Below are positions 2,191 through 64,000 of a DNA stretch of 64,000 nt, in pieces. The stretch's first letter is position 1; the number at the start of each line of letters is the position of its first letter. Source of the DNA: Escherichia coli (GTDB lineage: Bacteria > Pseudomonadota > Gammaproteobacteria > Enterobacterales > Enterobacteriaceae); the NCBI GenBank assembly GCA_902500055.1, contig GCA_902500055.1_4131.1. One strand, given 5' to 3'. The translations under genes were made by a program, and so were the position numbers. The notes under the pieces are model-generated. The model saw nothing but the letters and a program-made list of their open reading frames with translations, was not told the origin of the DNA and did not search any database.

Positions 2191-5100
2191 TTACCAAGTG
2201 AAGAATCCATTGTTTACTGACGCAGTACTTTTTTCATGAATACCAATATCCATATCCAAAATACCAAAAATATTCTCTAATTTTTTAGTTAGAACAATCT
2301 CTTCCATTTTTTCAGTATCAAATGGTAGTTCCAAGAACCATTCTGGAAGATACTCAACACAGTCAATTGGATAACCAACTGCTTTAATTCCCATAGGATT
2401 ATCTTTTAAGTTACAGACAATTACTTTTGTTCCATCTGTTACTTCTGGAACAGATTTATCATCATAAACTTCACGTAGACGGTTCCATTGGATACCAGCA
2501 AGAACGTGACCAACTTTACACTTACCAGTTAGCTGATATTCAGCCTCTAAATTAGTGTAGTTTTTTACAGTTTTTGGTGAACCTTTTTCATGTACAGGCA
2601 TATCCTTAAATACGTCCTTAAACTCACGTACACGCTGTTTTAGCTGTTGTTCACTCTCACCTACCAGTAATGCGATTAGAGTCTCTTCTAGGAAGTTCTG
2701 GATGTATTTTGGCGTGTCTGAGCGTTTAATTTCAAGACCCATCGCTTTGATTTCACCTGGTTTACCATCAATATCTTTACGGAACCCATCTTCCCAGTAC
2801 TTCAGAATTGCATAACGTTTTTTCTTCAAGAATAGGCCACGCGAACCAACCATCTCAAGGTCTGCACCAACAATCTTACCTTTTTCAATACCAGTGTTGA
2901 ACATCTCATGCATAAATGATGGGAAAGATTCACCAACTTCTTCACCAATTTTAATATACATATCAACAATCTCTTCTTTAGATAGATTATATGGAATACC
3001 TTGTTCTTTCAGATAATGAGTTACACTAAAGTAAACTGAGTCAGTATCACCATAAATTACTGAACCACCTTGGTGGTTATATACACCAGTAGTAATTTCA
3101 TTGATACGACTTGCCATATGTTTGGTCATAGAACGTCCAGTTAATGTTACGGATTGACCTAAACGTTTGTCAAAAAAACGAGAACCTTTGTTCAATAGTG
3201 CACCATATAGACTGTTTAGAAGAATCTTACGAATCTGTTGGTTCTGTTTCCAGAAAGCACTACGTTGTTTGAAGTAATCTTTTTCTTCTTTAGGACAGAA
3301 AATACGACCATCTTTTAGTACTAATCCGTTTTCTACAATCAACTTAGCAACTTCATCCCACTGTCCTTTACCAATTTCTTTACGAAGTAAGTATACAGGA
3401 TCATTATCATGAATATTAGTTCTAAACATTGTACCAGGGGTATAGTTTGATAGTAGTGGTTCGACTTTTTCATAGCCATTAAACTCCCAACCATCAGTAT
3501 ACATATGTTTGTAGTCAATGACCATTTTTTGCTGTGCTTTACGTTCAGAATACCATTGAGTTAGAATGTCAGGAATTACACCAGACTTAGACTTATCAAA
3601 AAGTGTTCCGTTTGCACTAAGTACAATAGTACTATCTTCTGCAAAAATAATATCATATAGCTCTTTGCCCGTTGCTTTAAAAGAACTCCCATCTTCTAAA
3701 TCAACAATCAATGTTTCTTCTGACTTTTCATGAACCATTGTAAATTCAACAGCAGCAAATAAACCATGCCATGCCGCAGTCCAATCTGGTTCAAATGATT
3801 TAGATTTAGATTTGTTCTTCTGTTCTTGGATTTTAGCTGCAAGATACGCATCGGTGTAATCTTGACGTAATTGACCAAGAATACATTCAGTACTCATACC
3901 CAAAGTACGTAGAACAGTAGGGTAAAGAGAGTTAAAGTCAGTACACCCAAGGTCACTTACAAGTCCTAGTACTGGATCTTGTACCCATGCACCTGCTGCT
4001 TTTGCACTAATTTTCTCATCTTCATCTTCACCATCTTCACCATAATATTCCATTTCTGGATCAAACTCAAGATCATCTTTCGGTGCTTTGTTGAAAACAA
4101 CTTCACCACGAGTATGTGCTAAGTTGATAATAGCAGTGTCGATTAGTGCTACTGAACCCATTGTTGTACTGATAAGTACACATTCTTTGTGTGCAAGTCG
4201 ATTGTGTAGGTTGATATAGTCACATTTAGCATCAATCTTTTTAAGAAGAATACTATCCTGTTTAGAATAACGCAAGAAAGTAATGTAATCCTCTCTGTAA
4301 AGTTTATCCAATGAACCTTCATATGATACTTTATTTTCTTTAGTTACTTTTTCAGCAATATAATCTAGTTTATAAGATTGTTCAACTTGACCAGCATGTT
4401 TCTTATACAAAGCCAAATAATCAAGATGGACGCGACCTACCAGATCATATGTTTGAACAGTTTTACCAAAGTTGTCTGCTTCACGTGAATTTGGTTTTTT
4501 ATTCCATAAACACCAACGAGCAGTTGTTGCTTCATTGAAGATTTTTTTAGTTCGATTGATCATATATGGAATATCAAAGAATTCACTATTCCATCCTGAA
4601 ATAACATCAGAATCATCAATTAAACTAAAGAATTCCATAAACATTTCCTTTTCGTCTGTATATAAAATTACAGTACTGTTAGGATCGTTTGTTTCTTCAT
4701 TTAGTTGGCGAACAATATCTTGTGCTTCATAAATTTCCATATCAGCAGGTGGTAAAGTAAGTACATAATCCTTTCCAGTCCATGATTGATATAGAGAAAT
4801 AGCGGTTACTCGGTTAAACGGGTCTGATGGTGGAGCATAACCAAATTTCTTATGGAAATCAGTCTCGATATCGAAGAACACGATGTTCAAATCGGGTGAA
4901 CCTTTTCCCATATATTCTTTAGCTAATGTTTTAAATGTAATGTTACAATCACTTTCAAAAATACGTAGACCTTCACTTTTGTGTTGCTCTACACTTTTAT
5001 TCATTTGAGCTTGAGTTTGAAACTCAAAATGTTTAGCCATTGTACCATAAACAGTTTTATGTGTTCCTTGTGGGGATTCAACATAATATTCATATACTGG

Positions 5101-5196: not shown

Positions 5197-5233
5197 CGTT
5201 TGTATTCCCTTACGTTTATTAAGTTAAAAAGAA

Positions 5234-5253
5234 AGCCTCCGTCATTGGAGGCT
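5234..5253 (-). terminator. rho-independent terminator (stem AGCCTCC / GGAGGCT, T-run on minus strand)
   Basis: Hairpin followed on the minus strand by TTCTTTTT, immediately downstream of the 5276-5578 gene and upstream of the polymerase start. Confidence 0.5.
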
Positions 5254-5275
5254 ATTTAATATATTTTAGTACTAA

Positions 5276-5578
5276 TTAGTAATCATCTGCTTGTGGAAGA
5301 TTATTAGTAACACTAAGAATAGTTTCGATATTATCGAGTTTATTTTGTTTGTCAAAGTAATCACCTTTGTACATACGTTGTGCAGCTTGTTTGATATCAG
5401 ATGCATCGATACCAAGTTCATCAGAAACACTAGAAACAAAATCAGATAAGGATGCTTTGGTATCATCAATGAAAGTTAGTTGTACAACAATGTTGTTAAG
5501 TGCGTCACCGAGACGTTTACGTTGTTCATCGTTTAGATCACGAATTTCAACTTTAACTTCTTTTTTAGATTTAGCCAT
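5276..5578 (-). CDS. hypothetical protein
   Basis: ORF track 5276..5605; start moved to ATG at 5578 (MAKSKKEVKVEIRDL...) which has GGAGA 8-9 nt upstream. Confidence 0.4.
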   Translation of the reverse strand: MAKSKKEVKVEIRDLNDEQRKRLGDALNNIVVQLTFIDDTKASLSDFVSSVSDELGIDASDIKQAAQRMYKGDYFDKQNKLDNIETILSVTNNLPQADDY

Positions 5579-18209: not shown

Positions 18210-19046
18210 ATGGCTATGAATCCACTTGCTAAGTACACTAAAATTGAAGAGATCAGTACTAAGTTAGTTACAAACGGCGTTATTCCTTATAAAGAAGGAG
18301 TTCTAGGTCCAAAAGGTGTCAAATGTGGAGTTTGTGCACGTAGTGCACGTGATGAAATGACACTTAATACCCCCGATATGTTACTAAACGGAGATGCAGT
18401 ATCCCGTGTTATTGAAAACTGTGTTCCTAATGTAATTGACGCTGATGAGTTGTATGTAAATGACGTTGAAATGCTTCTTATTGCTATTAAAGTTGCTTCT
18501 AAAGAAGAAACATATGATATTAACGTTGTATGTCCTGAATGTGAAAAAGAAGGTCGATTTGAACGTAATCTATCATATCTTCTTGAAACTGCACAAGCAT
18601 TTGAAGAAATCCCATCAATTGATTTAGATAATGGACTCCGTTTAGAATTTAGACCACTGACATGGAAAGAATATTCATCGTTTGCTGAACGCATGTTCAG
18701 TGAGCAGCAGAAGACTAAGTTTCTTGAAACTGCTGATATTGATAAAGATGAAAAAGTAAAAATATTTTCTGAAGTATTTGAAAACATGGCTCAACTTAAC
18801 TTCGATATGATTGGTGGAGTTATTGCAAAAATTATAACACCAGATGGTGATGAAGTAGTTGAAAAAGAATTTATTAATGAATGGCTTGGACAACAATCGA
18901 AGGGAGTACTTAAACTAATTCGTGAAAAAATGGATGAAGTACTTGAAATTGGTGTATCTCATAGTATGGAAGTAGAATGTGATGGATGTAATCATCAATG
19001 GGAAATTGATGGACTAAAATATGATCCTAGTCATTTTTTCGAGTAA
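18210..19046 (+). CDS. zinc-binding hypothetical protein (three Cys pairs), likely late/structural
   Basis: 278 aa with CGVC, CPEC and CDGC motifs; late promoter and RBS GGAG upstream. Confidence 0.45.
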   Translation: MAMNPLAKYTKIEEISTKLVTNGVIPYKEGVLGPKGVKCGVCARSARDEMTLNTPDMLLNGDAVSRVIENCVPNVIDADELYVNDVEMLLIAIKVASKEETYDINVVCPECEKEGRFERNLSYLLETAQAFEEIPSIDLDNGLRLEFRPLTWKEYSSFAERMFSEQQKTKFLETADIDKDEKVKIFSEVFENMAQLNFDMIGGVIAKIITPDGDEVVEKEFINEWLGQQSKGVLKLIREKMDEVLEIGVSHSMEVECDGCNHQWEIDGLKYDPSHFFE

Positions 19047-19255
19047 TGCTTCTCCAGTCATCTCCTGAAGAAATACAAGAAGTACTGAAGGAGATAGAAC
19101 TGAATAAGTCAGAAATCAAAAATGCACTAATGGAATGTTCTGTATATATGGATAACATTGACTATGGAACACTCCTTAATATGCCATTAATAGATAGAGA
19201 CTTATTAGTTAAGTCTTTTAATAAAAAAATTAAAAAACAAAACGAGAAGCACTAA
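19046..19255 (+). CDS. hypothetical protein
   Basis: 69-aa ORF whose ATG overlaps the upstream stop (TAATG). Confidence 0.4.
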   Translation: MLLQSSPEEIQEVLKEIELNKSEIKNALMECSVYMDNIDYGTLLNMPLIDRDLLVKSFNKKIKKQNEKH

Positions 19256-19266
19256 TTTTCATATAG

Positions 19267-19292
19267 CCAGCACATTGTTGCTGGTTTTTTTT
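19267..19292 (+). terminator. rho-independent terminator (CCAGCA-cattgt-TGCTGG + T8)
   Basis: Perfect 6-bp stem followed by eight T immediately after the 19046-19255 gene. Confidence 0.65.
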
Positions 19293-19440
19293 GGTTTTAA
19301 ACTACAGAATTATTTGAATTGAATTATGAAAGGATTAATTTTAATATTATTGGATTCATCTAACTCATTTCATTCGTTAGCTGAAGAATATTCGTTACTA
19401 CGTAACTCATATTCATTTAATTAAATTAATTATAAAGAAC

Positions 19441-19920
19441 TTTAAAAGATTTAATACTTGACGGGATTTGTTGAGGACATTTTCATCCCCCCGCAGGGGA
19501 ATGAAGACAATAAAAAAGAGACAATGAAGTCTCTATTTCTTGACGCTGATGGTTTCAGCATTTATTGTATTGCGAATTTCTTAAAAATATATTAAGAACG
19601 AAAGCGGGTTGCTCTGTTTCTCTCTATCGCAGTCATGTGCAACGGTCGTCAGTCTTAATCATCCTGACACTCACCTGAAAGTCTATACAATCAAACTTCA
19701 GGCTGTTTATTAAAATCACTTAATAAACTCCCTTAGCAAATCTGGTAAGGTGCGATCCTTATATGTCTATCTAGGAACTCTCTGTATGCTTATCGGAGTT
19801 CTTTATTGAGCCGCATTGCCGTGAGGGGTTCAAACTATGCCCACATCTAACGGGTTTCTTTTGCTCATCGCACTGTTGAACTGCTCATCTGCCATCTACA
19901 TTTTCGATAGGATCAGGTTC
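19441..19920. ncRNA. candidate large structured non-coding RNA in an ORF-free region (strand and ends undetermined)
   Basis: ~840 bp (19256-20092) without any ORF of 60 aa or more in six frames; the core is visibly more GC-rich than flanks and contains multiple hairpins (TCATCCCC/GGGGAATGA, AGAGAC/GTCTCT, TAAGG/CCTTA, AGGAACTC/GAGTTCTT, GCTGA/TCAGC). No canonical tRNA T-loop found. Confidence 0.25.
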
Positions 19921-20092
19921 TAATTTATATGCATTTCTGCATTCAACAGGATTGTCATTACTACAACAAACATTATAGCACTATTTTTAAAATCTTCCCA
20001 CTAATATCATAAAAAAATAAAAAAGTACTTAGTACATTTTTGAAGTATAAAAAAACCAAGTAACAAAACATTACTTGGTTCATAAAAACTAT

Positions 20093-20644
20093 TCAATAAT
20101 TTATATTTTTTGATATGAAGTCTTTTATAATTTTAATGTGGTCATCTGAATACTTTATTCTAAGTAAAGTAATATTATTATCATAACAATACTTATTCTT
20201 AATTTCATCATTTCGTTGTTGTTCAGCTAAACCTTCTTCTCCACCGAAGTATTCTATTGGTTTGAAGTGTTGGATACCATCATATTCTATTAGTAGATTA
20301 AGTTCAGGAATATAAAAATCAAATGGTAAATGATTGATGTTTTTACAACTATCAAATTTCTTTTCCATTTCAAACATTATATCACACGTTTTTAAAAAAT
20401 TCTGAATTTCAATAACAGGTTTTGATTTTAGTTCTTGGTCTGAACAAACTGGACACCCTTGTTTTGCAGAAATGTGTTTATTAGGAACTACTGTGAAGTC
20501 ACCGTGAATGTTACACGTAACAGTTATTGGATGGTGTGCATTGACATATATTGTTTTATTGTATGTGTAAATACTACCATGAATATTCATTGATTTATCT
20601 ATGAATTGTTGTTGTGTAATTTTAGCTATTCTTGTGTACCTCAC
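20093..20644 (-). CDS. zinc-ribbon + PD-(D/E)xK (Vsr/DUF559-like) nuclease, homing-endonuclease-like
   Basis: N-terminus HHPITVTCNIHGDFTVVPNKHISAKQGCPVCS is the same ribbon type as in 8568-9722; C-terminus LPFDFYIPELNLLIEYDGIQHF...RDxxK fits the DUF559/Vsr-like PD-(D/E)xK core. Confidence 0.5.
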   Translation of the reverse strand: MRYTRIAKITQQQFIDKSMNIHGSIYTYNKTIYVNAHHPITVTCNIHGDFTVVPNKHISAKQGCPVCSDQELKSKPVIEIQNFLKTCDIMFEMEKKFDSCKNINHLPFDFYIPELNLLIEYDGIQHFKPIEYFGGEEGLAEQQRNDEIKNKYCYDNNITLLRIKYSDDHIKIIKDFISKNINY

Positions 20645-20689: not shown

Positions 20690-21181
20690 ATGAAAAAGAG
20701 ATTGAAAAATCCCAATGAAGCAGCAGCTTACAGAAAAGAACTACTAAAAAAACAAAATGGTATTGACCCCATTATAGGAATAAAAATAACTAAACCAGTA
20801 CTTGACCACTATCATGGTGGAAATCAACATTGTAGACAGGTTCTTCAAAATGAGGTGAATGGATGGGAAGGAAGGGTCGCAAATTCATTTAAACGCTGTC
20901 TGGGCCATTTAACTGATAAACCTCTTCATGAAGTACTAAGAAATCTGGCAGATTATCTTGAAAAGAACAATAACATTCCACCTGAAGAGCAAGTCATACA
21001 TCACACAGCACTAACTGTGGATGTTAATAAGTTTAAAAGGCTTCCAGCAACACAGCAAAACGCGATTCTGGAAGGGTTAGGAGTTGTCCCTGGTAGTAAC
21101 ACTACTGCTCGTGTAAAGCAAGCTAGAAAGCTGATTAAGGACGGTAAATTAAATATGGTTGATATAAAAAAAGGGAGCTAA
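20690..21181 (+). CDS. endonuclease VII-like / His-Me finger nuclease (uncertain)
   Basis: PVLDHYHGGNQHCRQVLQNEVNGWEGRV loosely resembles T4 endonuclease VII HLDHDHELNGPKAGKVRGLLCNLCNAAEG; 163 aa versus 157 aa. Confidence 0.35.
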   Translation: MKKRLKNPNEAAAYRKELLKKQNGIDPIIGIKITKPVLDHYHGGNQHCRQVLQNEVNGWEGRVANSFKRCLGHLTDKPLHEVLRNLADYLEKNNNIPPEEQVIHHTALTVDVNKFKRLPATQQNAILEGLGVVPGSNTTARVKQARKLIKDGKLNMVDIKKGS

Positions 21182-59007: not shown

Positions 59008-62000
59008 ATGTACTCAATAAAAACTGACTTAGATATTACTGGTGCTGGTACGGTTGGTAAGGATCTTTTAGTCAAAGGAAATGCTGTTTTCAATAATAAC
59101 CTAACTGTAAATGGTACTGTAACTTTTGCAAATGCAACTTTTACTGCCATTGAATCATCAACTGCCAATATTACATCTACTTTAGATGTAGGTGGCAAAG
59201 CAACACTTTCTGGTGGTCTTGGTGTTGAGGGTAATACTACAATCGGTAGTGCAGTGGTCGGGTCTGATACAGCAACAATTAATTCAAACGCTACCTTTAA
59301 CGGTACTGTATCAGTTGGTTCTGATTTTACACAAACTGCTGGTACAACCACTCTACAAGCAACTAAAGTTAAAAACTTAGAAGTTGCTGAAACAACAGCA
59401 TTTAAAGGTAATATTACTGCTGATGTTGGTACTACTGCTGCATTTGATAAAATTACTGCTAATACCGCAGAAATTACTAATGTAAGTACAACCGATATTA
59501 GTAGTACTGGTACTGCTACATTTAAAGATGTGACAATTAGTGGTACACTTGGTGGTGAGTTTAATCTATCTGACTTAAATGCAGTAACATTGAACGTTAC
59601 TGGTGCATCTAACCAACAAGGTGCAGTAACTTTCGGTGCTAACGTAACTGGTATTAACAGTACTGCTACTTTTAAAGACATTCGTATTGGTTCTAACTCT
59701 GAATCTCAAACCTTCAGATTAAGCTTCCCTTACACTGCTCCTGGTAAACGCCCAACTGTTATTCTACAAAACGAAATTCAGTCCGAGTTAATGTCACCTG
59801 CAAACTTAACAGTTTTGACATCTGCTTCTTTTGGTAATGCGTCATTATCTTCTTATGGTATTACTGGTAATGGTCTAAACAAATTAGATTATCTAACAGT
59901 TTCTGGTAACAATACACAATCACCAGACACCCCACTATTAGAAGTTCAAAAAGGAAAAACCAAAGTTGCCGATTTTGAAGTTACAGGAACCGCAACTATA
60001 CCAAATATTGAAAGTACTGGAACTGCTAATTTTAATAATATTAATATTTCTGGTGTTCTTGGTGGAACATTCCAACTAGATGATATTAATGCAGTAACAT
60101 TGAACGTTACTGGGGCCACTTCGTTAGTTGGTGGTGTTACTCTTGGTTCTAATATTACTGGTTATAATAGTACTGCTACCTTTAAAGCTATTAGCTTAGG
60201 TCAAAATAGTCAAGATGCAGCAGTGAAACTAGGTTTTGGATATACTGCACCCGGTCAACGCCCAACAGTTATTCTACCTAATGAAGTTCAATCAGAAGTA
60301 GTTTCTCCTTCTACATTGAACGTTCTTAAAACTGCAACTTTTGGTAATGCGTCATTATCGTCTTATGGCATTACTGGTAATGGCCTAAACAAATTAGATT
60401 ATCTAACAGTTTCTGGTAACGAAACACAAGCTCCAGATACACCACTATTAGAAGTTCAAAAAGGAAAAACCAAAGTTGCTGACTTTGAAGTCACCGGAAC
60501 TGCAACTATACCAAATATTGAAAGTACTGGAACTGCTAATTTTAATAATATTAATATTTCTGGTGTTCTTGGTGGAACATTCCAATTAGACGATATTAAT
60601 GCAGCATCTTTGAACGTTACTGGTGCAACTTCATTAGTTGGTGGTGTTACTCTTGGTTCTAATATTACTGGTTATAACAGTACTGCATCATTTAAAGCTA
60701 TCAGCTTAGGCCAAAGTAGTCAAGATTCTGCTGTAAAACTTGGATTTGGATATACTGCACCAAGTCAACGTCCAACCGTGATTTTACCTAACGAAGTTCA
60801 ATCAGAATTAGTTTCTCCTTCAACACTGAACGTTCTAAAAACGGCAACTTTTGGTAATGCTGCACTTTCTACGTATGGTATTACTGGTAATGGCCTAAAC
60901 AAATTAGATTACCTAACCATTACAGGTAACGCAACACAAGACCCTAGTACACCATTCCTACAAGTTGGTGGTAAAGCAATTCTTAATGATGTTGAATTTA
61001 CTGGAACAGTAACTGGGTTAACTGTTGATGTAAGTGGTCAGGATCTAACACCAAACTCAGTTGTTGCTGCGACAAATATTAAAGGTGCAACCCTTGAAAG
61101 TACTGGTAACACTACTGTGGGTGCTAAACTAACTGTTACTGGTGATATTGCTGGTACAACTGCAACTCTTTCTGGTGCATTATCTGCTGGTTCAATAAGT
61201 TCTGGTGTTATTACTGGTACAACTTCAGTTTCAGCACCAACAATTAGTGCATCTACTGAAGTAACTGCTCCTACTATCACTGCTAGTGGGACTTTAAGTG
61301 GTCAAACTATTAACGGAACTAATATTAGTGCAACAACTCTTACTGCACCAACTATTAGTGGTAATACAAACTTTACAGAAAATGTTGATATTACTGGCAA
61401 CCTAACCGTTACTGGCACAGTAACGCCAGGTACGATTGATTTGAGCACAACTGATGTAAGTGCGAAATCTATTACTACTACCGCTGGTGCAAATATTGGT
61501 GGTGATCTTGTGGTTCAAGGTTCTTTTGATTTATCATCAGCAGACATTAGCGTTAAATCACTAACTGCTTCTGGTATTGTTAAAAGTAATGATCTTGTTA
61601 ATGCTAACGTACTTCCAGTACTTAATAGTACTACTGCAACAATTAATACTGTTAATGCAACTGAACTTGCGGTAACAGGTCCATCCAATCTAGCATCTGT
61701 TCGTACAAGTGCTGATGTTGTAGTCGGAACAACTTTAAATGTAAGTGGTGAAACAACAACTGCATCTCTAGTTACTCCATCTATTTCCAATGCAACTGGT
61801 GTTACAATTGGTAATAATACTTCTATCACTGGTGACTTAACTGTTAGTGGTGCTGTGATTCCTGGATCTATCGACCTAGCATCAACTGATGTTAACGCTA
61901 AATCAATCACAACAACTGCTGGTGCAACAATTGGTGGAAACTTAACCGTTAACGGTACAGTAGACCTAACTGCTGCTGATGTAACAGTTAAATCTCTAAC

Positions 62001-64000
62001 CAGTACTGGTGCAATCATTAGTAATGAATCAACTATTAGTAGTGTTCTACCTAAACTACAAAGTACTGATGCGACAATTGCAACTCTAGGTTCTACTACT
62101 GCGAATATTACTAATTTGAATGTAACTGGTGCAACTTCTGTTGCTGATGTAACATCTTCTGGTAAAGTTACAGCAGTTTCTATTGAAGTTCCAACCATTG
62201 GTAATACTGCGGGTGTATCTATTGCTAATAATACATCTATTACTGGTGACCTAACAGTTTCTGGTACAGTGACACCAGGTGCTATTGATTTAACAACAAC
62301 TGATGTTAATGCTAAATCAATCACAACAACTGCTGGTGCGACTATTGGTGGTGATCTTGTTGTTTCTGGTACAGTTGATTTAAGTGGTTCTGATGTATCT
62401 GTTAAATCTCTAACAAGTACTGGTATTATTACAGTTAGTAGTGCAGAAGGTATTAACGTTCTACCTAAAGTTCAAAGTACTGAAGTTACAGTGTCTGCTC
62501 TAAATGCAACAAATGCAGTAGTTTCTGGTGATGTTTCAGCAGCAACAGCTTCAATCTCAGGTGCAGTTACTGGTGGTTCAGCAACGCTATCTGGTGCTGG
62601 AACTGCTCTAAATGTAACTAATAATGCAACTGTCGGCGGTACACTTACTGTTGGTTCTATTACTTCAGCGGCAGAAAATGTATCCATTACTAAAAATACC
62701 GCTGTCACTGGTAATTTAGCAGTATCTGGAACTCTAACTGCTGGTGTTATTGATTTGAGCACAACTGATGTGTCTGTGAAGACATTAACTTCTCTAGGTG
62801 ATGCAACCGTTCAAGGTAACTTAACTGTTGATGGTTCTATTGACCTAAGTTCTGCAAACATCGTCGGTGTAACACTAGAAAGTACTGGCTCTACCACTGT
62901 AGGTACTGATTTGATTCTAACTACAGGTAACATTACAGGTAGTCCATCTATTTCTGGTAACTTGGGTGTTACTGGAACCACAACGTTAACTGGTGCAACT
63001 ACAGTTTCAAACACATTGTCAACTGGTGGTAAACTAACAGTTAATACTGGTGGTATTCAAGTAGTTGATGGTGGTATTCAAGTTGATGCAGGAACTATTA
63101 CCGCACCAAGTGCTAATATTTCTGGTGACTCTACCCTTAATAGTGCAACTGTAACTACTACCCTTGGTGTTACTGGTGCAGCTAGTATGAATGGTGGCCT
63201 TACAGCATCTACTCTAGATGTAACTGGTGACAGTACTGTACAAAAACTAACTGTTAAGGGTGCATTTATTCCTGAAGGTGGTTTGGACCTATCCGGTGCT
63301 GATCTTAACGTGAATAGCGTAACTGCTGCAACCACATTAAGTGTTACTGGTGCAAGTACTCTAACTGGTGGTGTTTCCACTTCAACTGTTACTGCATCCG
63401 GTAAGGTAACCTCACAAGAACTAAGTACTGGTACATTGGCAGTAACCACAAATGGAACAGTTGGTGGTACTTTAGATGTAACTGGAAAGGCAACAGTCGG
63501 TTCACTAGATTCAGGTGCAATATCTGCAACTTCTGGTACATTTAGTACTACACTAGGTGTAACAGGTGCAGCAACATTTGGTAACAATGTTAATATTACT
63601 GGCACGTTAACCCCAGGTGCATTGGATTTATCTAGTACTGATGTAGATGCTAACAGTCTTTCTGTTGCAACAACCCTACATTCAAACGGCAATGCAACAA
63701 TCGGTGGTACACTAGGTGTAACTGGTGCAGCAACTGCTCCATCAATCGCTCTTAATGGTGAAGGAACTGCATTAGCAGTTACTAACAATGCAACAATTGG
63801 TGGTACACTAGGTGTAACTGGAAAGGCAACTGTCGGTTCACTAGATTCAGGTGCAATATCTGCCACATCTGGTACATTTAGTACTACACTGGATGTAACT
63901 GGAGCAGCAACATTTGGTAACAATGTTAACATTACTGGCACATTAACACCAGGTGCATTGGATTTAACTAGTACTGATGTAGTTGCTAACAGTCTTTCTG
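59008..64000 (+). CDS. giant repetitive Thr/Gly/Ser/Asn-rich fibre-like protein, partial (at least 1,660 aa, continues past window end)
   Basis: Manual codon-by-codon translation from ATG 59008 (RBS GGAGGG at 58997-59002) shows no stop up to 64000: MYSIKTDLDITGAGTVGKDLLVKGNAVFNNNLTVNGTVTFANATFTAIESS... Contains three tandem ~170-aa repeats and many copies of motifs such as TPG(A/T)IDL(S/T)TTDV(N/S)AKSITTTAGA(T/N)IGG. Missing from ORF track because no stop lies in the window. Confidence 0.75.
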   Translation, partial: MYSIKTDLDITGAGTVGKDLLVKGNAVFNNNLTVNGTVTFANATFTAIESSTANITSTLDVGGKATLSGGLGVEGNTTIGSAVVGSDTATINSNATFNGTVSVGSDFTQTAGTTTLQATKVKNLEVAETTAFKGNITADVGTTAAFDKITANTAEITNVSTTDISSTGTATFKDVTISGTLGGEFNLSDLNAVTLNVTGASNQQGAVTFGANVTGINSTATFKDIRIGSNSESQTFRLSFPYTAPGKRPTVILQNEIQSELMSPANLTVLTSASFGNASLSSYGITGNGLNKLDYLTVSGNNTQSPDTPLLEVQKGKTKVADFEVTGTATIPNIESTGTANFNNINISGVLGGTFQLDDINAVTLNVTGATSLVGGVTLGSNITGYNSTATFKAISLGQNSQDAAVKLGFGYTAPGQRPTVILPNEVQSEVVSPSTLNVLKTATFGNASLSSYGITGNGLNKLDYLTVSGNETQAPDTPLLEVQKGKTKVADFEVTGTATIPNIESTGTANFNNINISGVLGGTFQLDDINAASLNVTGATSLVGGVTLGSNITGYNSTASFKAISLGQSSQDSAVKLGFGYTAPSQRPTVILPNEVQSELVSPSTLNVLKTATFGNAALSTYGITGNGLNKLDYLTITGNATQDPSTPFLQVGGKAILNDVEFTGTVTGLTVDVSGQDLTPNSVVAATNIKGATLESTGNTTVGAKLTVTGDIAGTTATLSGALSAGSISSGVITGTTSVSAPTISASTEVTAPTITASGTLSGQTINGTNISATTLTAPTISGNTNFTENVDITGNLTVTGTVTPGTIDLSTTDVSAKSITTTAGANIGGDLVVQGSFDLSSADISVKSLTASGIVKSNDLVNANVLPVLNSTTATINTVNATELAVTGPSNLASVRTSADVVVGTTLNVSGETTTASLVTPSISNATGVTIGNNTSITGDLTVSGAVIPGSIDLASTDVNAKSITTTAGATIGGNLTVNGTVDLTAADVTVKSLTSTGAIISNESTISSVLPKLQSTDATIATLGSTTANITNLNVTGATSVADVTSSGKVTAVSIEVPTIGNTAGVSIANNTSITGDLTVSGTVTPGAIDLTTTDVNAKSITTTAGATIGGDLVVSGTVDLSGSDVSVKSLTSTGIITVSSAEGINVLPKVQSTEVTVSALNATNAVVSGDVSAATASISGAVTGGSATLSGAGTALNVTNNATVGGTLTVGSITSAAENVSITKNTAVTGNLAVSGTLTAGVIDLSTTDVSVKTLTSLGDATVQGNLTVDGSIDLSSANIVGVTLESTGSTTVGTDLILTTGNITGSPSISGNLGVTGTTTLTGATTVSNTLSTGGKLTVNTGGIQVVDGGIQVDAGTITAPSANISGDSTLNSATVTTTLGVTGAASMNGGLTASTLDVTGDSTVQKLTVKGAFIPEGGLDLSGADLNVNSVTAATTLSVTGASTLTGGVSTSTVTASGKVTSQELSTGTLAVTTNGTVGGTLDVTGKATVGSLDSGAISATSGTFSTTLGVTGAATFGNNVNITGTLTPGALDLSSTDVDANSLSVATTLHSNGNATIGGTLGVTGAATAPSIALNGEGTALAVTNNATIGGTLGVTGKATVGSLDSGAISATSGTFSTTLDVTGAATFGNNVNITGTLTPGALDLTSTDVVANSLS
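59581..60960 (+). repeat. direct tandem repeat, period 510 bp (170 codons), about 2.7 copies, inside the giant fibre gene
   Basis: Copies begin at 59581, 60091 and 60601 (each starts GCAG(T/C)A...TTGAACGTTACTGG); copies 2 and 3 are near-identical over long stretches. Confidence 0.8.
63481..64000 (+). repeat. direct repeat, period ~340 bp, within the giant fibre gene
   Basis: ACTGGAAAGGCAAC(A/T)GTCGGTTCACTAGATTCAGGTGCAATATCTGC...GGTACATTTAGTACTACACT... occurs at 63481 and again at 63821 with few substitutions. Confidence 0.7.

Follow-up and report, generated by a model that had tools for sequence, protein, structure and literature searches.

The DNA analysed here is a stretch of 64,000 nt from a contig assigned to Escherichia coli (assembly GCA_902500055.1), referred to below as the window. 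Between a convergent plus-strand operon and a minus-strand endonuclease gene lies an interval (19256–20092) that a sequence-only reading of the same DNA had described as an island without ORFs of 60 aa or more, with a GC-rich core and many hairpins, and had put forward as a candidate large structured non-coding RNA. The longest ORF on either strand of this interval was 45 aa, and the GC content was 0.365–0.425 over 19500–19900, compared with 0.185–0.28 in the flanks. The boundaries given in that reading, a terminator upstream and a minus-strand nuclease gene downstream, were both recovered, the first by a terminator scan and the second by a PHROG match (Table 1), and ARAGORN detected no tRNA or tmRNA gene (0 genes) in the whole window, as the reading had also supposed for tRNAs. 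The island as such is real, but its extent had to be redrawn: the conserved module occupies ~19355–20000 and the RNA core 19510–19966, so that the right side is narrower and the left edge is differently defined. The endonuclease gene is an insertion upstream of the RNA promoter; it is missing in the relatives G17 and UE-S1, where endonuclease VII lies directly at this place instead; in most other relatives the match to the window ends at ~20031.

Table 1. Features of the RNA module and its surroundings in the window
Feature	Position	Strand	Remarks
Terminator of convergent plus-strand operon (baseplate-hub gene 18210–19046 and ORF 19046–19255)	19265..19286	+	Terminator scan; context
3′ hairpin module: GAAUAUGAGUUAC-GUA-GUAACGAAUAUUC, then CUAAC-GAAUGAAAUGA-GUUAG	19360..19414	-	Degenerate compared with other genera
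AT-rich spacer, 4 G/C in 43 bases, 91 % A+T	19415..19457		Read from the sequence
‘Box 1’, CAAAUCCCGUCAA, second constant copy of the CGUCA(A/G) motif	19458..19470	-	Nearly invariant in 36 sequences
GC-rich hairpin UUCAUUCCCC-UGC-GGGGGGAUGAA, just past the terminator	19482..19505	-	In every copy
Intrinsic terminator, stem AGAGAC/GUCUCU then U6; presumed RNA 3′ end	19510..19534	-	Terminator scan
Core non-coding RNA, ~455 nt, at least 16 helices including three pseudoknotted	19510..19966	-	Alignments A1 and A2; transcript inferred
‘Box 2’ hairpin GCUGA-AACCA-UCAGC, then CGUCAA	19540..19559	-	In all copies; one copy of the motif AUC(N)CGUC(A/C)(A/G)
Pseudoknot A, 3′ arm AUACAAU	19564..19570	-	Continues directly from helix 19627–19631/19571–19575; coordinates verified
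H-type pseudoknot, most conserved core	19600..19643	-	Helices 12 and 14
Pseudoknot A, 5′ arm AUUGUAU, a hairpin loop	19685..19691	-	Pairs with 19564–19570; helix 10
5′ hairpin AUGCA-GAAA-UGCAU, GNRA-type loop	19929..19942	-	All 5 pairs covary (helix 1)
Extended −10 element TGCTATAAT (TGnTATAAT)	19972..19980	-	Conserved among copies
−35 element of the RNA promoter, TGGGAA; family consensus TG(G/A)(G/A)AC/A	19995..20000	-	17 nt upstream of the −10 in every copy
Terminator of endonuclease gene	20081..20053	-	Terminator scan
Free-standing HNH/homing endonuclease gene	20093..20644	-	PHROG 559, E = 1e-50; context, outside the RNA

The island was identified with high confidence as a structured RNA gene on the minus strand, encoding a non-coding RNA with its own promoter and intrinsic terminator; the transcript itself is inferred, there being no experiment. 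Assignment to the minus strand rests on promoter and terminator logic. The arrangement TGRRAC/A, 17 nt, TGnTATAAT was met in the window (20000..19972) and also in the phage and island copies examined; TATAAT was found in all copies examined (as TATACT in three island copies), was preceded by TGn in nearly all, and had diverging flanks. From the spacing, transcription is inferred to start at ~19964–19967. The −35 element of the window matches the ‘divergent RpoD-like’ class, with −35 TGAAACG, which has been described for phages CBB and GAP32 and reported upstream of DNA-synthesis genes in CBB (PMC5259590). The ECO103 genome contained 21 promoters of the class to which the RNA promoter belongs, all on one strand. 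Terminators of the upstream genes immediately preceded the RNA promoter in several copies, and the genes flanking the RNA were co-oriented with it in RaK2, as well as at paralogues A, C and D of ECO103. The plus strand was considered as the RNA strand on account of two promoter-like TTGACG boxes and was rejected: these boxes, present in the E. coli phages, are CTGACG in most other genera and are not accompanied by a conserved −10, while both TGnTATAAT and a terminator are found on the minus strand. GAAA loops recurred in several lineages only when the minus strand was read. Counts of G.U versus A.C pairs followed whichever strand the structure had been predicted on and were equal on shared pairs.

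Compared with dinucleotide shuffles, the 458-nt stretch scored z = −3.0 when folded as the minus strand (−111.7 kcal/mol) and z = −2.0 as the plus strand. The hairpin richness of the island is thus above chance by fold energy and, what counts for more, its helices are retained through compensatory changes among relatives. Alignment A1 supported 81 pairs, 96.3 % paired, of which 50 were compensatory. Full-length members numbered 58 in the collected loci, and covariation statistics were calculated on the 36 non-redundant copies (alignment A2): 73 pairs were 97.3 % paired, 53 of them with compensatory changes, compared with 78.8 % in shuffled and ~40 % in slid controls, and none of 500 shuffles (0/500) reached the A2 value. 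Compensatory substitutions were found in 15 of the 16 modelled helices, including the three pseudoknotted ones, and the window sequence forms every helix of the 73-pair model. The covariation among relatives that the sequence-only reading had proposed as a check is therefore present, and its candidate large structured RNA is upheld.

The helix of pseudoknot A comprises 7 bp, with 99.2 % of cells paired and compensatory change in six of the seven pairs. In the H-type pseudoknot, GUUGC (19643..19639)/GCAAC (19612..19608) crosses the hairpin GAGAG (19624..19620)/CUUUC (19604..19600); both helices were 100 % paired with three compensatory pairs each, and the second has one G.U pair that was invariant in 36/36 sequences. 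Conserved unpaired positions were A-rich (58/116) and included long invariant stretches, among them GAUAGAGAGAAACAGAGCAACCCGCUUUCG and CUAAGGGAG.

Several other elements were tried and discarded. A long-range GAUG/CGUC pairing in the first alifold model was contradicted by an uncompensated A→U change in seven sequences, and the alifold helix UAAGG/CCGUU, which had no covariation, was replaced by the GUUGC/GCAAC pseudoknot helix, which is 100 % Watson–Crick. Hammerhead-like (CUGAnGA...GAAA) and RNase P-like resemblances (with AGAGAGnAAAC among the superficial motifs) were unconserved or unsupported by any model, and a small ORF following an invariant Shine–Dalgarno-like AAGGGAG had no conserved start codon or frame.

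The terminator, with a covarying stem and U6–7, was present in approximately three quarters of family members and absent from paralogues A and D. The family layout, in which the terminator is followed by the GC hairpin CCCCUGCGGGGGG and the box CAAAUCNCGUCA, was met in the window at 19534..19458, and the hairpin and box were found in all members. Only one-sided (G.U) changes and no compensatory pair were seen in the GC-rich hairpin in A2, so the sequence of this hairpin may itself matter. The motif AUC(N)CGUC(A/C)(A/G) occurred 17 times on the sense strand of the whole ECO103 genome, eight of these inside the four modules (0.9 % of the genome), and AAATC.CGTCA was confined to the modules in that genome. 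The CGUCA(A/G) box was also considered as a genome-wide promoter or operator, but outside the modules it was not above chance frequency. The AT-rich spacer varied between copies in length and sequence, and a role as an unwinding element is only inferred. In other copies the 3′ module consisted of two hairpins, a long one capped by the loop (A)ACGAAGUGA and UUUGACAUUC-GAA-GAAUGGCAAA, and the pairing of both was kept by compensatory changes. The window module stands alone, facing the convergent operon, and has no co-oriented gene downstream, as is also the case for its orthologues and for the copies in Serratia islands L089 and L091. Most paralogues were followed, 30–60 nt past the 3′ hairpins, by a co-oriented gene with a Shine–Dalgarno sequence and without a clear promoter of its own; these downstream genes were unrelated between paralogues.

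The RNA apparently belongs to an undescribed family and constitutes a new RNA class. BLAST detected the family in every one of the 72 RaK2-like phage records and in no other phage record (0/50,625), at four to five places per genome in RaK2-like phages and two in Alcyoneusvirus. The carriers form a clade of ~350-kb phages infecting E. coli, Klebsiella, Salmonella, Serratia, Erwinia and Yersinia. ECO103 had four copies on the same strand, at 18, 128, 208 and 262 kb of 352 kb, and its paralogue D shared its downstream genes (Dam methylase and cytidylyltransferase) with the RaK2 copy. Among the matches listed, a 501-nt core was 100 % identical in 12 phage records, whose 951-nt region was 97.6–100 % identical; identity across genera was 67–78 %. 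The full-length profile (nhmmer) matched the window at 19458–19981 (E = 9e-143), the family spanning ~480–620 nt from box 1 to the promoter.

The specific classes suggested by the sequence-only reading (GOLLD, ROOL, group I and II introns, tmRNA and RNase P) could not be substantiated: no Rfam family matched at gathering score and none of these matched at E ≤ 10 in the core. GOLLD had no match in the window at gathering score, none at E ≤ 10 in 19100–20250 on either strand and none in 10 family loci; ROOL had no Rfam match in the window, the core or these 10 loci; Rfam gave no tRNA or tmRNA; and RNase P RNA, group I/II introns and known small ribozymes had no match at E ≤ 10 in the core. Weak Rfam matches were confined to terminator look-alikes at 19215–19299. 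No homology to ncRNA001 or ncRNA002 of phage PA5oct was detected (nhmmer --max, E ≤ 100, 16 kb covering both, with ncRNA003/004 outside the comparison). In the literature on RaK2, CBB, PA5oct, viral structured RNAs and island transduction by jumbo phages the element is undescribed, only its promoter class being reported; fragments are possibly included among 10,006 unnamed viral candidates (PMC10690425).

Members of the family were also found in small integrative islands of Citrobacter, Klebsiella, Serratia, E. coli and an Enterobacteriaceae MAG; such islands occur in host genera of RaK2-like phages. The islands carry an integrase and defence-type cargo, including retron- and SIR2-type genes, and the module is found at the island end, with transcription directed inward, in each of the five island types. 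Replication or transfer genes were not recognizable in the islands examined, and no homologues of island proteins were found in the phage genome for the two islands compared (L096 and the E. coli island L099). Searches of neighbouring and island proteins against Pfam yielded only recombinase, ParB_N/RepB, sigma-70 and DUF7325 and nothing else informative, and a plasmid collection gave no family match. Island copies possess two tandem perfect extended −10 promoters and are, for this reason, probably constitutively expressed. A gene of 165 aa lies after the RNA, in the same orientation, in the Citrobacter and Klebsiella islands. The sequence-only reading had missed the minus-strand sense with its conserved promoter and terminator, the four paralogous copies in the genome and the occurrence of the family in bacterial integrative islands.

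What the module does is inferred and has not been shown. Our tentative preference, held at somewhat below even confidence, is that it acts as the pre-primer or organizer RNA of a Rep-independent, RNA-primed replication origin, which the islands copy in order to hitchhike. A replication origin had been named briefly in the sequence-only reading and stays a viable view of the module's function. On this view the promoter would be followed by a long folded RNA serving as ‘pre-primer’, then by the terminator and its U-run, the G-rich hairpin, between two and four CGUCA(A/G) boxes and, last, the AT-rich spacer. Whether the 3′ part of the RNA remains on the template and primes a leading strand, synthesized in the same direction as transcription, would depend on how the RNA folds. 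A comparable logic of fold and primer is known from the T4 origin transcripts and ColE1 RNA II. Replication of a 350-kb genome would be served by four to five dispersed origins, and for islands without replication or transfer genes the benefit of a retained copy might be that they are replicated, and then packaged, by an infecting jumbo phage.

The evidence for such an origin is circumstantial throughout. The copies are dispersed and on the same strand (four in ECO103), T4 has roughly five origins, and by analogy the four to five places per genome would approximate that number. The promoter class is tied to DNA-synthesis genes in CBB, and conserved parts extend past the terminator, namely the non-covarying GC hairpin and the module-specific boxes, together with the 91 % A+T spacer. 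The module often stands alone, without a co-oriented gene downstream. In the islands, inward transcription from the end in all five types, the lack of a recognizable replication or transfer gene in those examined and the lack of any phage-shared protein (L096 and E. coli L099) would all suit such a role. Integrase-plus-defence islands are among the satellites that jumbo phages are known to transduce (PMC12595487).

Other observations weigh against an origin. A transcript, an R-loop and origin activity all lack experimental demonstration. Three pseudoknots and many invariant unpaired bases are more than a primer RNA would obviously need; complexity of this kind is more typical of ribozymes and RNP scaffolds. 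The AT-rich spacer lies ~510 nt downstream of the promoter and beyond the intrinsic terminator, so most transcripts would stop before reaching it; it is also unconserved, and its composition is what intergenic DNA of this genome ordinarily shows. No origin signal emerged from GC skew or from maps of gene orientation, and neither an antisense control RNA nor an initiator-binding protein was identified. The probable constitutive expression of the island copies is not required of an origin used only during infection.

A large structured RNA acting in trans, in the manner of GOLLD, ROOL, OLE, 6S or CsrB, is a rival explanation that we regard as possible but less likely. The 455-nt RNA would be released at the terminator, accumulate from its four copies and bind, or catalyse a reaction on, a conserved phage or host partner; constitutive island copies would be decoys or immunity factors against RaK2-like phages, or the island's own regulator. 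The stand-alone layout of promoter, RNA and terminator in approximately three quarters of copies, the three pseudoknots with their long invariant unpaired stretches, the two tandem perfect extended −10 promoters in island copies and the lack of a downstream gene at the window copy and at two island copies all suit a released product, and several gene copies suggest a dosage requirement. Abundant long non-coding RNAs of 236–619 nt have moreover been reported from the related jumbo phage PA5oct (PMC7318152). A trans-acting RNA nevertheless leaves unexplained why the GC hairpin, box 1 and 3′ hairpins are conserved past the terminator, why the terminator is lost in paralogues A and D and why the module is transcribed inward from the island end in all five types. 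It also lacks a partner protein common to phage and islands, and the RNA has no similarity to any Rfam family or to ncRNA001/002, two of the four PA5oct long non-coding RNAs.

Another rival is that the RNA works in cis at the head of a middle transcription unit, as its 5′ leader or as a giant nut/put-like element for antitermination or attenuation. The choice between stopping at the terminator and reading into the downstream genes would lie with a phage factor, or with the RNA itself through an action on RNA polymerase, and island genes would be switched on only at the arrival of the helper phage. The upstream genes end in terminators close before the RNA promoter; in most paralogues the gene that follows is co-oriented and has a Shine–Dalgarno sequence, and in the Citrobacter and Klebsiella islands the 165-aa gene follows; the terminator comes directly after the folded domain, as in riboswitch-type leaders. 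We nevertheless consider a leader improbable. The window copy and its orthologues have no downstream gene and yet keep the full fold under compensatory evolution, the Serratia island copies likewise lack a downstream gene, and the downstream genes of the paralogues are unrelated. Known antitermination RNAs measure 50–120 nt, against ~455 nt here, and no alternative antiterminator pairing covarying with the terminator stem was found.

An element working only as DNA (a packaging signal, recombination hotspot or protein-binding array), with an incidental transcript, would fit the conservation of the CGTCA(A/G) boxes and the GC hairpin as sequence and not as pairs, and the inward orientation at island ends also suits a packaging start site. 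Compensatory retention of long-range and pseudoknotted pairings, including a 7-bp helix between segments ~115 nt apart, is, on the other hand, expected of a folded single strand and not of sites in duplex DNA; a G.U pair within a covarying helix is invariant, the element is bracketed by a conserved promoter and terminator, and for CBB a defined terminal repeat has been reported (PMC5259590), with which as many as four to five packaging sites would be at odds, all of which makes this explanation very unlikely. Unannotated small protein genes, or a chance ORF-free fluctuation in AT/GC content, can be dismissed almost entirely, for although the region carries ‘hypothetical protein’ ORFs in several automatic annotations and the longest ORFs of family members are 28–130 aa, the conserved small protein-coding gene that the sequence-only reading had named as its refutation is not there: no ORF is conserved, every frame of the window copy has 7–16 stop codons, ORF position and strand differ between members, indel-run lengths modulo 3 (100, 391, 75) show no preference for multiples of three, substitutions track base-pairing and not codon structure, and the family is kept at the identity given above across genera.

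Because the RNA is present in several copies in every RaK2-like phage and in enterobacterial mobile islands, it is probably an important and still unstudied part of jumbo-phage biology. To our knowledge, large, intricately folded bacterial and phage RNAs are rare, and nearly every one that has been studied has proved to be a ribozyme, the core of an RNP or an example of a new structural principle. By protein comparison (L096 and L099), the RNA is the sole element common to RaK2-like phages and the retron/SIR2-type islands. The module may, as a more doubtful extension would have it, be a shared handle that links these phages with minimal defence islands, being a Rep-independent origin or another essential cis- or trans-acting RNA through which the islands are replicated and transduced or jam the phage; if so, it would represent a new class of large pseudoknotted RNA in DNA replication or in satellite–helper conflict. 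Its sequence gives a handle on how RaK2-like phages start replication or time gene expression, and a way into the spread of islands without transfer genes, a question newly opened by island transduction by jumbo phages. RaK2-like phages are used as therapy candidates, and an element that mobilizes or blocks islands therefore matters in practice.

GOLLD and ROOL are RNAs of several hundred nucleotides with many covarying helices and pseudoknots, are borne by phages and mobile elements, and have no known function. The RNA described here resembles them in length, in its covarying helices and pseudoknots and in its carriage by phages and other mobile elements, but differs in having no match to their covariance models, even at E ≤ 10, in not lying beside tRNA genes (ARAGORN, window), in occupying four to five places per genome, at conserved positions where checked, in having conserved parts past its terminator and in being confined to one jumbo-phage clade and enterobacterial islands. 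The lambda nut and HK022 put sites are 50–75 nt long with one or two hairpins; they too are folded RNAs between promoter and terminator that head transcription units and occur more than once per genome, whereas the present RNA is ~455 nt long with three pseudoknots and several of its copies have no downstream gene. PA5oct, of a related jumbo-phage clade, has four ORF-free loci (ncRNA001–004) of 236–619 nt that are co-oriented with flanking genes, as here, two of them highly transcribed by RNA-seq (PMC7318152); the PA5oct RNAs differ in having no published structure or family, and ncRNA001/002 showed no similarity in a profile search with filters off. The islands resemble PICMIs (PMC10803314) and I55 (PMC12595487) in being small, with an integrase, defence-type cargo and no recognized transfer genes; a text search of the I55 paper revealed no shared RNA or non-coding element. 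With ColE1 RNA II and the T4 origins oriF and oriG there is no sequence similarity; the new fold is far more elaborate and is pseudoknotted, its terminator precedes the AT-rich stretch and no antisense regulator like RNA I was found. Like them, however, the module specifies a promoter-driven transcript of ~0.5 kb whose fold could control primer formation, with no dedicated initiator gene nearby and a promoter class associated with replication genes, and, as in T4, several dispersed copies are present in each phage genome.

The interval 19256-20092 was found to hold a conserved, heavily pseudoknotted RNA locus, complete from promoter to terminator, which occurs in multiple copies in a single phage clade and is also carried by small islands; no function of the RNA has been shown. 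The sequence-only reading had described an interval without ORFs of 60 aa or more, with a GC-rich core, an upstream terminator, a downstream minus-strand nuclease gene and no canonical tRNA. The longest ORF on either strand was 45 aa, GC content was 0.37-0.43 in 19500-19900 vs 0.19-0.28 on both sides, a plus-strand terminator was located, the nuclease gene proved to encode a homing-type HNH endonuclease and ARAGORN detected no tRNA or tmRNA; the description was therefore correct. The families it had named as candidates (GOLLD, ROOL, introns, RNase P and tmRNA) were excluded at the sensitivity of their models, the Rfam scan giving no match at the gathering score and none at E<=10 in the core. 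As a positive control, the Rfam scan recovered a TPP riboswitch (73.5 bits; L085:5385-5481, minus strand) upstream of thiM, adjoining the island of an Enterobacteriaceae MAG.

The window belongs to a RaK2-like (Asteriusvirus) jumbo phage. Over the 951 nt surrounding the RNA locus, identity with Escherichia phage ECO103 4-12-1 was 99.7%; the record of this phage corresponds to the window from about position 109,020. The genes around the locus are T4-like. The HNH gene is an insertion between the RNA promoter and endonuclease VII, present in the window phage and two near-identical records; the relatives G17 and UE-S1 lack it and have endonuclease VII directly after the locus, and in most other relatives the match ends at about window 20031. 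Elsewhere, within a long plus-strand coding sequence at 59200-64000, several families of direct repeats were seen, with units of 300-510 nt and of 30-50 nt and periods of 510, 414-465, 336 and 81-96 nt; this suggests a structural gene of the repetitive fibre or adhesin type.

Features of the RNA locus and its surroundings (window positions), and the island contexts of the RNA
Feature	Position or site	Strand	Remarks
Baseplate-hub protein	18210-19046		Pfam T4_baseplate
Terminator	19265-19286	+	ends convergent baseplate operon
3' hairpin UUUGACAUUC-GAA-GAAUGGCAAA		-	covaries
3' hairpin, apical loop (A)ACGAAGUGA		-	covaries
Spacer	19457..19415		91% A+T, unconserved
Box 1, CAAAUCNCGUCA(A/G)	19470..19458	-	
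GC hairpin UUCAUUCCCC-UGC-GGGGGGAUGAA	19505..19482	-	in all copies; changes one side at a time only
Intrinsic terminator of RNA	19534..19510	-	
Extra helix, GUUGC with GCAAC	19643..19639 with 19612..19608	-	crosses hairpin GAGAG/CUUUC
Extra helix, 7 bp	hairpin loop 19691..19685 with 19570..19564	-	partner segment ~115 nt downstream
Extra helix, 3-bp contact			
Extended -10 element	19980..19972	-	implies start near 19965
-35 element	20000..19995	-	
Free-standing HNH/homing endonuclease gene	20093-20644	-	PHROG 559, E = 1e-50; terminator 20081..20053
Endonuclease VII	20690-21181		
gp46-like recombination nuclease	from 21200		
Island, Citrobacter amalonaticus	between ppdD and nadC		large serine recombinase, RNA, 165-aa ORF, CI-like repressor, Ner-like gene; also a small resolvase
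Cargo of ppdD/nadC island			retron-Sen2-like pair (RVT_1 + STM3845); SIR2_2 protein in some copies
Island, Serratia sp. 2723	adjoining dapE/yffB		serine recombinase, then RNA
Island, Serratia fonticola, complete chromosome	at rof		4.7-kb element: serine recombinase, two ParB_N/RepB proteins, RNA
Island, Enterobacteriaceae MAG	beside thiM riboswitch		CI-like repressor downstream
Island, E. coli (2 of 5,426 complete genomes)	at ffs		tyrosine integrase

The 501-nt core 19440-19940 matched 72 of 50,697 phage records, all of them RaK2-like, with hosts in Escherichia, Klebsiella, Salmonella, Erwinia, Yersinia, Cronobacter, Pectobacterium, Serratia and 'Xanthomonas' and identity falling to 67-77% across genera; a divergent RaK2 copy used as query again gave 72 records from the same genera. 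Among the records listed, 12 had a core of 100% identity, with 97.6-100% over the wider 951-nt region. Each genome had 4-5 matching places, except for two in Alcyoneusvirus (at BLAST sensitivity). The ECO103 genome, assembled from eight pieces, had exactly four RNA copies (paralogues A-D), all on one strand, at 18.3, 128.3 (the window copy), 208.1 and 261.5 kb. A hypothetical gene, Dam methylase and cytidylyltransferase lie downstream of both the RaK2 copy and paralogue D; since copy position was conserved in this way where it could be checked, the duplication is probably old.

The RNA was assigned to the minus strand on three lines, promoter, terminator and gene context, an assignment that is well supported but inferred, there being no transcript data. 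On this strand every copy has a -35-like TG(G/A)(G/A)AC/A, 17 nt and an extended -10 TGnTATAAT, fixed amid diverging surroundings. A 'divergent RpoD-like' promoter (-35 TGAAACG), enriched before DNA-synthesis genes, is known from CBB and GAP32 (PMC5259590), and the RNA promoter is of this class. As TGRRAH, N14-16, TGnTATAAT, the class occurred 21 times in the 352-kb ECO103 genome, always on the same strand, and four of the 21 drive RNA copies. In about three-quarters of the copies the conserved core closes with a covarying minus-strand stem and U6-7; several copies are preceded by a terminator directly ahead of the RNA promoter, and in RaK2, as at ECO103 paralogues A, C and D, the neighbouring genes point the same way as the RNA. 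The minus strand was further supported by A-rich conserved unpaired positions (58 of 116), GAAA loops in the 5' hairpin and a G.U pair inside a covarying helix that was invariant in 36 of 36 sequences; the fold z-score was -3.0 vs -2.0 on the plus strand. The overall count of G.U vs A.C tracked the strand used for prediction and did not settle the matter. A protein of the sigma-70 family (321 aa, with Pfam regions 2, 3 and 4) is encoded just upstream of paralogue A (L002:18823-19788, minus strand, in one ECO103 piece), the terminator of its gene standing immediately before the promoter of that copy; this protein may read the TGAAAC-type -35.

RNAalifold analysis of 21 non-redundant copies gave 81 pairs, 50 with compensatory changes, and 96.3% of cells were paired vs 81% after shuffling and ~40% with partners slid. 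A symmetric search for stacked covarying columns, directed at helices absent from the nested model, found three extra helices, of which GUUGC/GCAAC is predicted to make, where conservation is highest, an H-type pseudoknot. Scanning metagenomes and genomes for sequence patterns enlarged the set to 36 sequences of <95% identity, for which a model built by hand, with 73 pairs forming 16 helices, had 97.3% of cells paired vs 78.8% shuffled and 39-45% slid; both sides had changed in 53 pairs (470 cells), and the observed values were attained in 0 of 500 shuffles. Covariation across relatives, which the earlier reading had proposed to look for, was present, with compensatory support in 15 of the 16 helices. 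Kinship among the sequences means that the shuffle control overstates significance and that the slid control is fairer; MAFFT misaligned two variable stems, which were assessable in the smaller alignment only. A Shine-Dalgarno-like AAGGGAG in the 19737-19745 region (minus-strand CUAAGGGAG) was unchanged in all 36 sequences; it lies in a segment that appears to be unpaired, has no conserved start codon after it, and may make a ribosome contact or a tertiary contact.

Minus-strand conservation extends past the terminator U-run, through the GC hairpin, box, spacer and two hairpins in that order; the latter two are degenerate in the window copy (19414..19360). The CGUCA(A/G) motif also occurs before the terminator (box 2, 19559..19540) and, in some copies, in short hairpins inserted at two alternative positions, and 8 of its 17 sense-strand occurrences in ECO103 fell within the four modules. 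A short hairpin with the motif GAUCCGUCCAAAAUU, which resembles boxes 1 and 2, was seen in the loop of either or both of two helices at L014, L020, L006, L010 and other loci carrying the RNA and was missing from the window copy and others; it behaves like a movable sub-module. Most paralogues have a co-oriented gene downstream; the window copy and its orthologues have none next and instead meet the terminator with which the convergent baseplate operon ends.

A degenerate pattern of 21 bases, taken from the conserved core, retrieved 50 metagenome and 10 genome loci, of which 43 and 4, respectively, were true full or partial members by profile search; most pattern-matched members lay on 350-370 kb contigs or on short contigs of unassessed origin. 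Five contexts of the RNA were bacterial islands, which are interrelated and do not represent five independent observations. The 165-aa protein next to the RNA led to further islands of the ppdD/nadC type, in Klebsiella variicola and other Enterobacteriaceae, and the E. coli ffs island has the RNA, a 118-aa protein and the resolvase in common with this Citrobacter/Klebsiella type. Each of the five types has the module at one island end, with transcription directed inward. Island copies retain the promoter (TGAAACA/G with TGnTATAAT or TATACT; two in tandem in one type), GC hairpin, box and 3' hairpin loop, and those of the L088 type also the terminator. At L096:9071-9200, in a ppdD/nadC island, TGAAACA, N17, TGGTATAAT occurs twice ahead of the RNA; the tandem promoters suggest strong expression in the uninfected host. 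No phage-genome homologues of island proteins were found for the two islands tested (L096 and the E. coli island L099), and no RNA copy was present in the plasmid collection. The ppdD/nadC islands L095-L098 were 11-12 kb, with an S24 CI-like repressor, an HTH_35 protein and, in some copies, a 1056-aa SIR2_2 protein, and cargo varied among otherwise identical backbones. The minimal element of S. fonticola GTA-SR07 (L091:61-4700) held nothing beyond the recombinase, two ParB_N/RepB proteins and RNA module, and rof occurred twice at this locus (4775-5038 and 5227-5490).

Three functional readings were ranked: an origin, then a trans-acting RNA, then a leader or antitermination element. Tentatively, and short of an even chance, the RNA of the module would serve as pre-primer or organiser of an RNA-primed replication origin that needs no Rep. 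This reading is favoured by the dispersed same-strand copies in ECO103 and by the 4-5 places in each genome, against about five transcript-primed origins in T4, by the promoter class linked to replication genes, by the elements conserved in sequence and the AT-rich spacer that follow the RNA, by copies that stand alone without a downstream gene, and by islands that lack recognisable replication or transfer genes and carry the module facing inward at one end. A precedent is ColE1 RNA II, a primer precursor of ~550 nt whose fold controls priming. The known transduction of integrase-plus-defence islands by jumbo phages is also in its favour (PMC12595487). However, a primer would not seem to need so rich a fold, the terminator stands before the AT-rich stretch and skew analysis gave no signal. 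A trans-acting RNP, decoy or ribozyme RNA is possible but doubtful; it would suit so complex a fold, a layout typical of a stand-alone gene and island promoters that look constitutive, but leaves the post-terminator elements and island geometry unexplained. That most copies stand at the head of an operon speaks for a leader or giant antitermination element, which is nevertheless unlikely given the copies without a downstream gene. A DNA-only element is very improbable, and a coding region scarcely credible: no coding signal was found, with stops in every frame, unconserved ORFs and indel-run lengths modulo 3 of 100, 391 and 75.

The RNA is like GOLLD and ROOL in kind, as a large ornate phage RNA, but is a member of neither, nor of any Rfam family. 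The related phage PA5oct has four lncRNAs defined by RNA-seq, and no similarity was found to the two tested (ncRNA001/002). No description of the RNA was found in the RaK2, CBB, PA5oct, viral structured-RNA catalogue or jumbo-phage island-transduction papers, in which only the promoter class had been noted. For these reasons it is regarded as a new class of RNA, of a general kind already known, with two unusual properties: several same-strand copies occur in each phage genome, and it is common to virulent jumbo phages and to integrative islands with defence-type genes.
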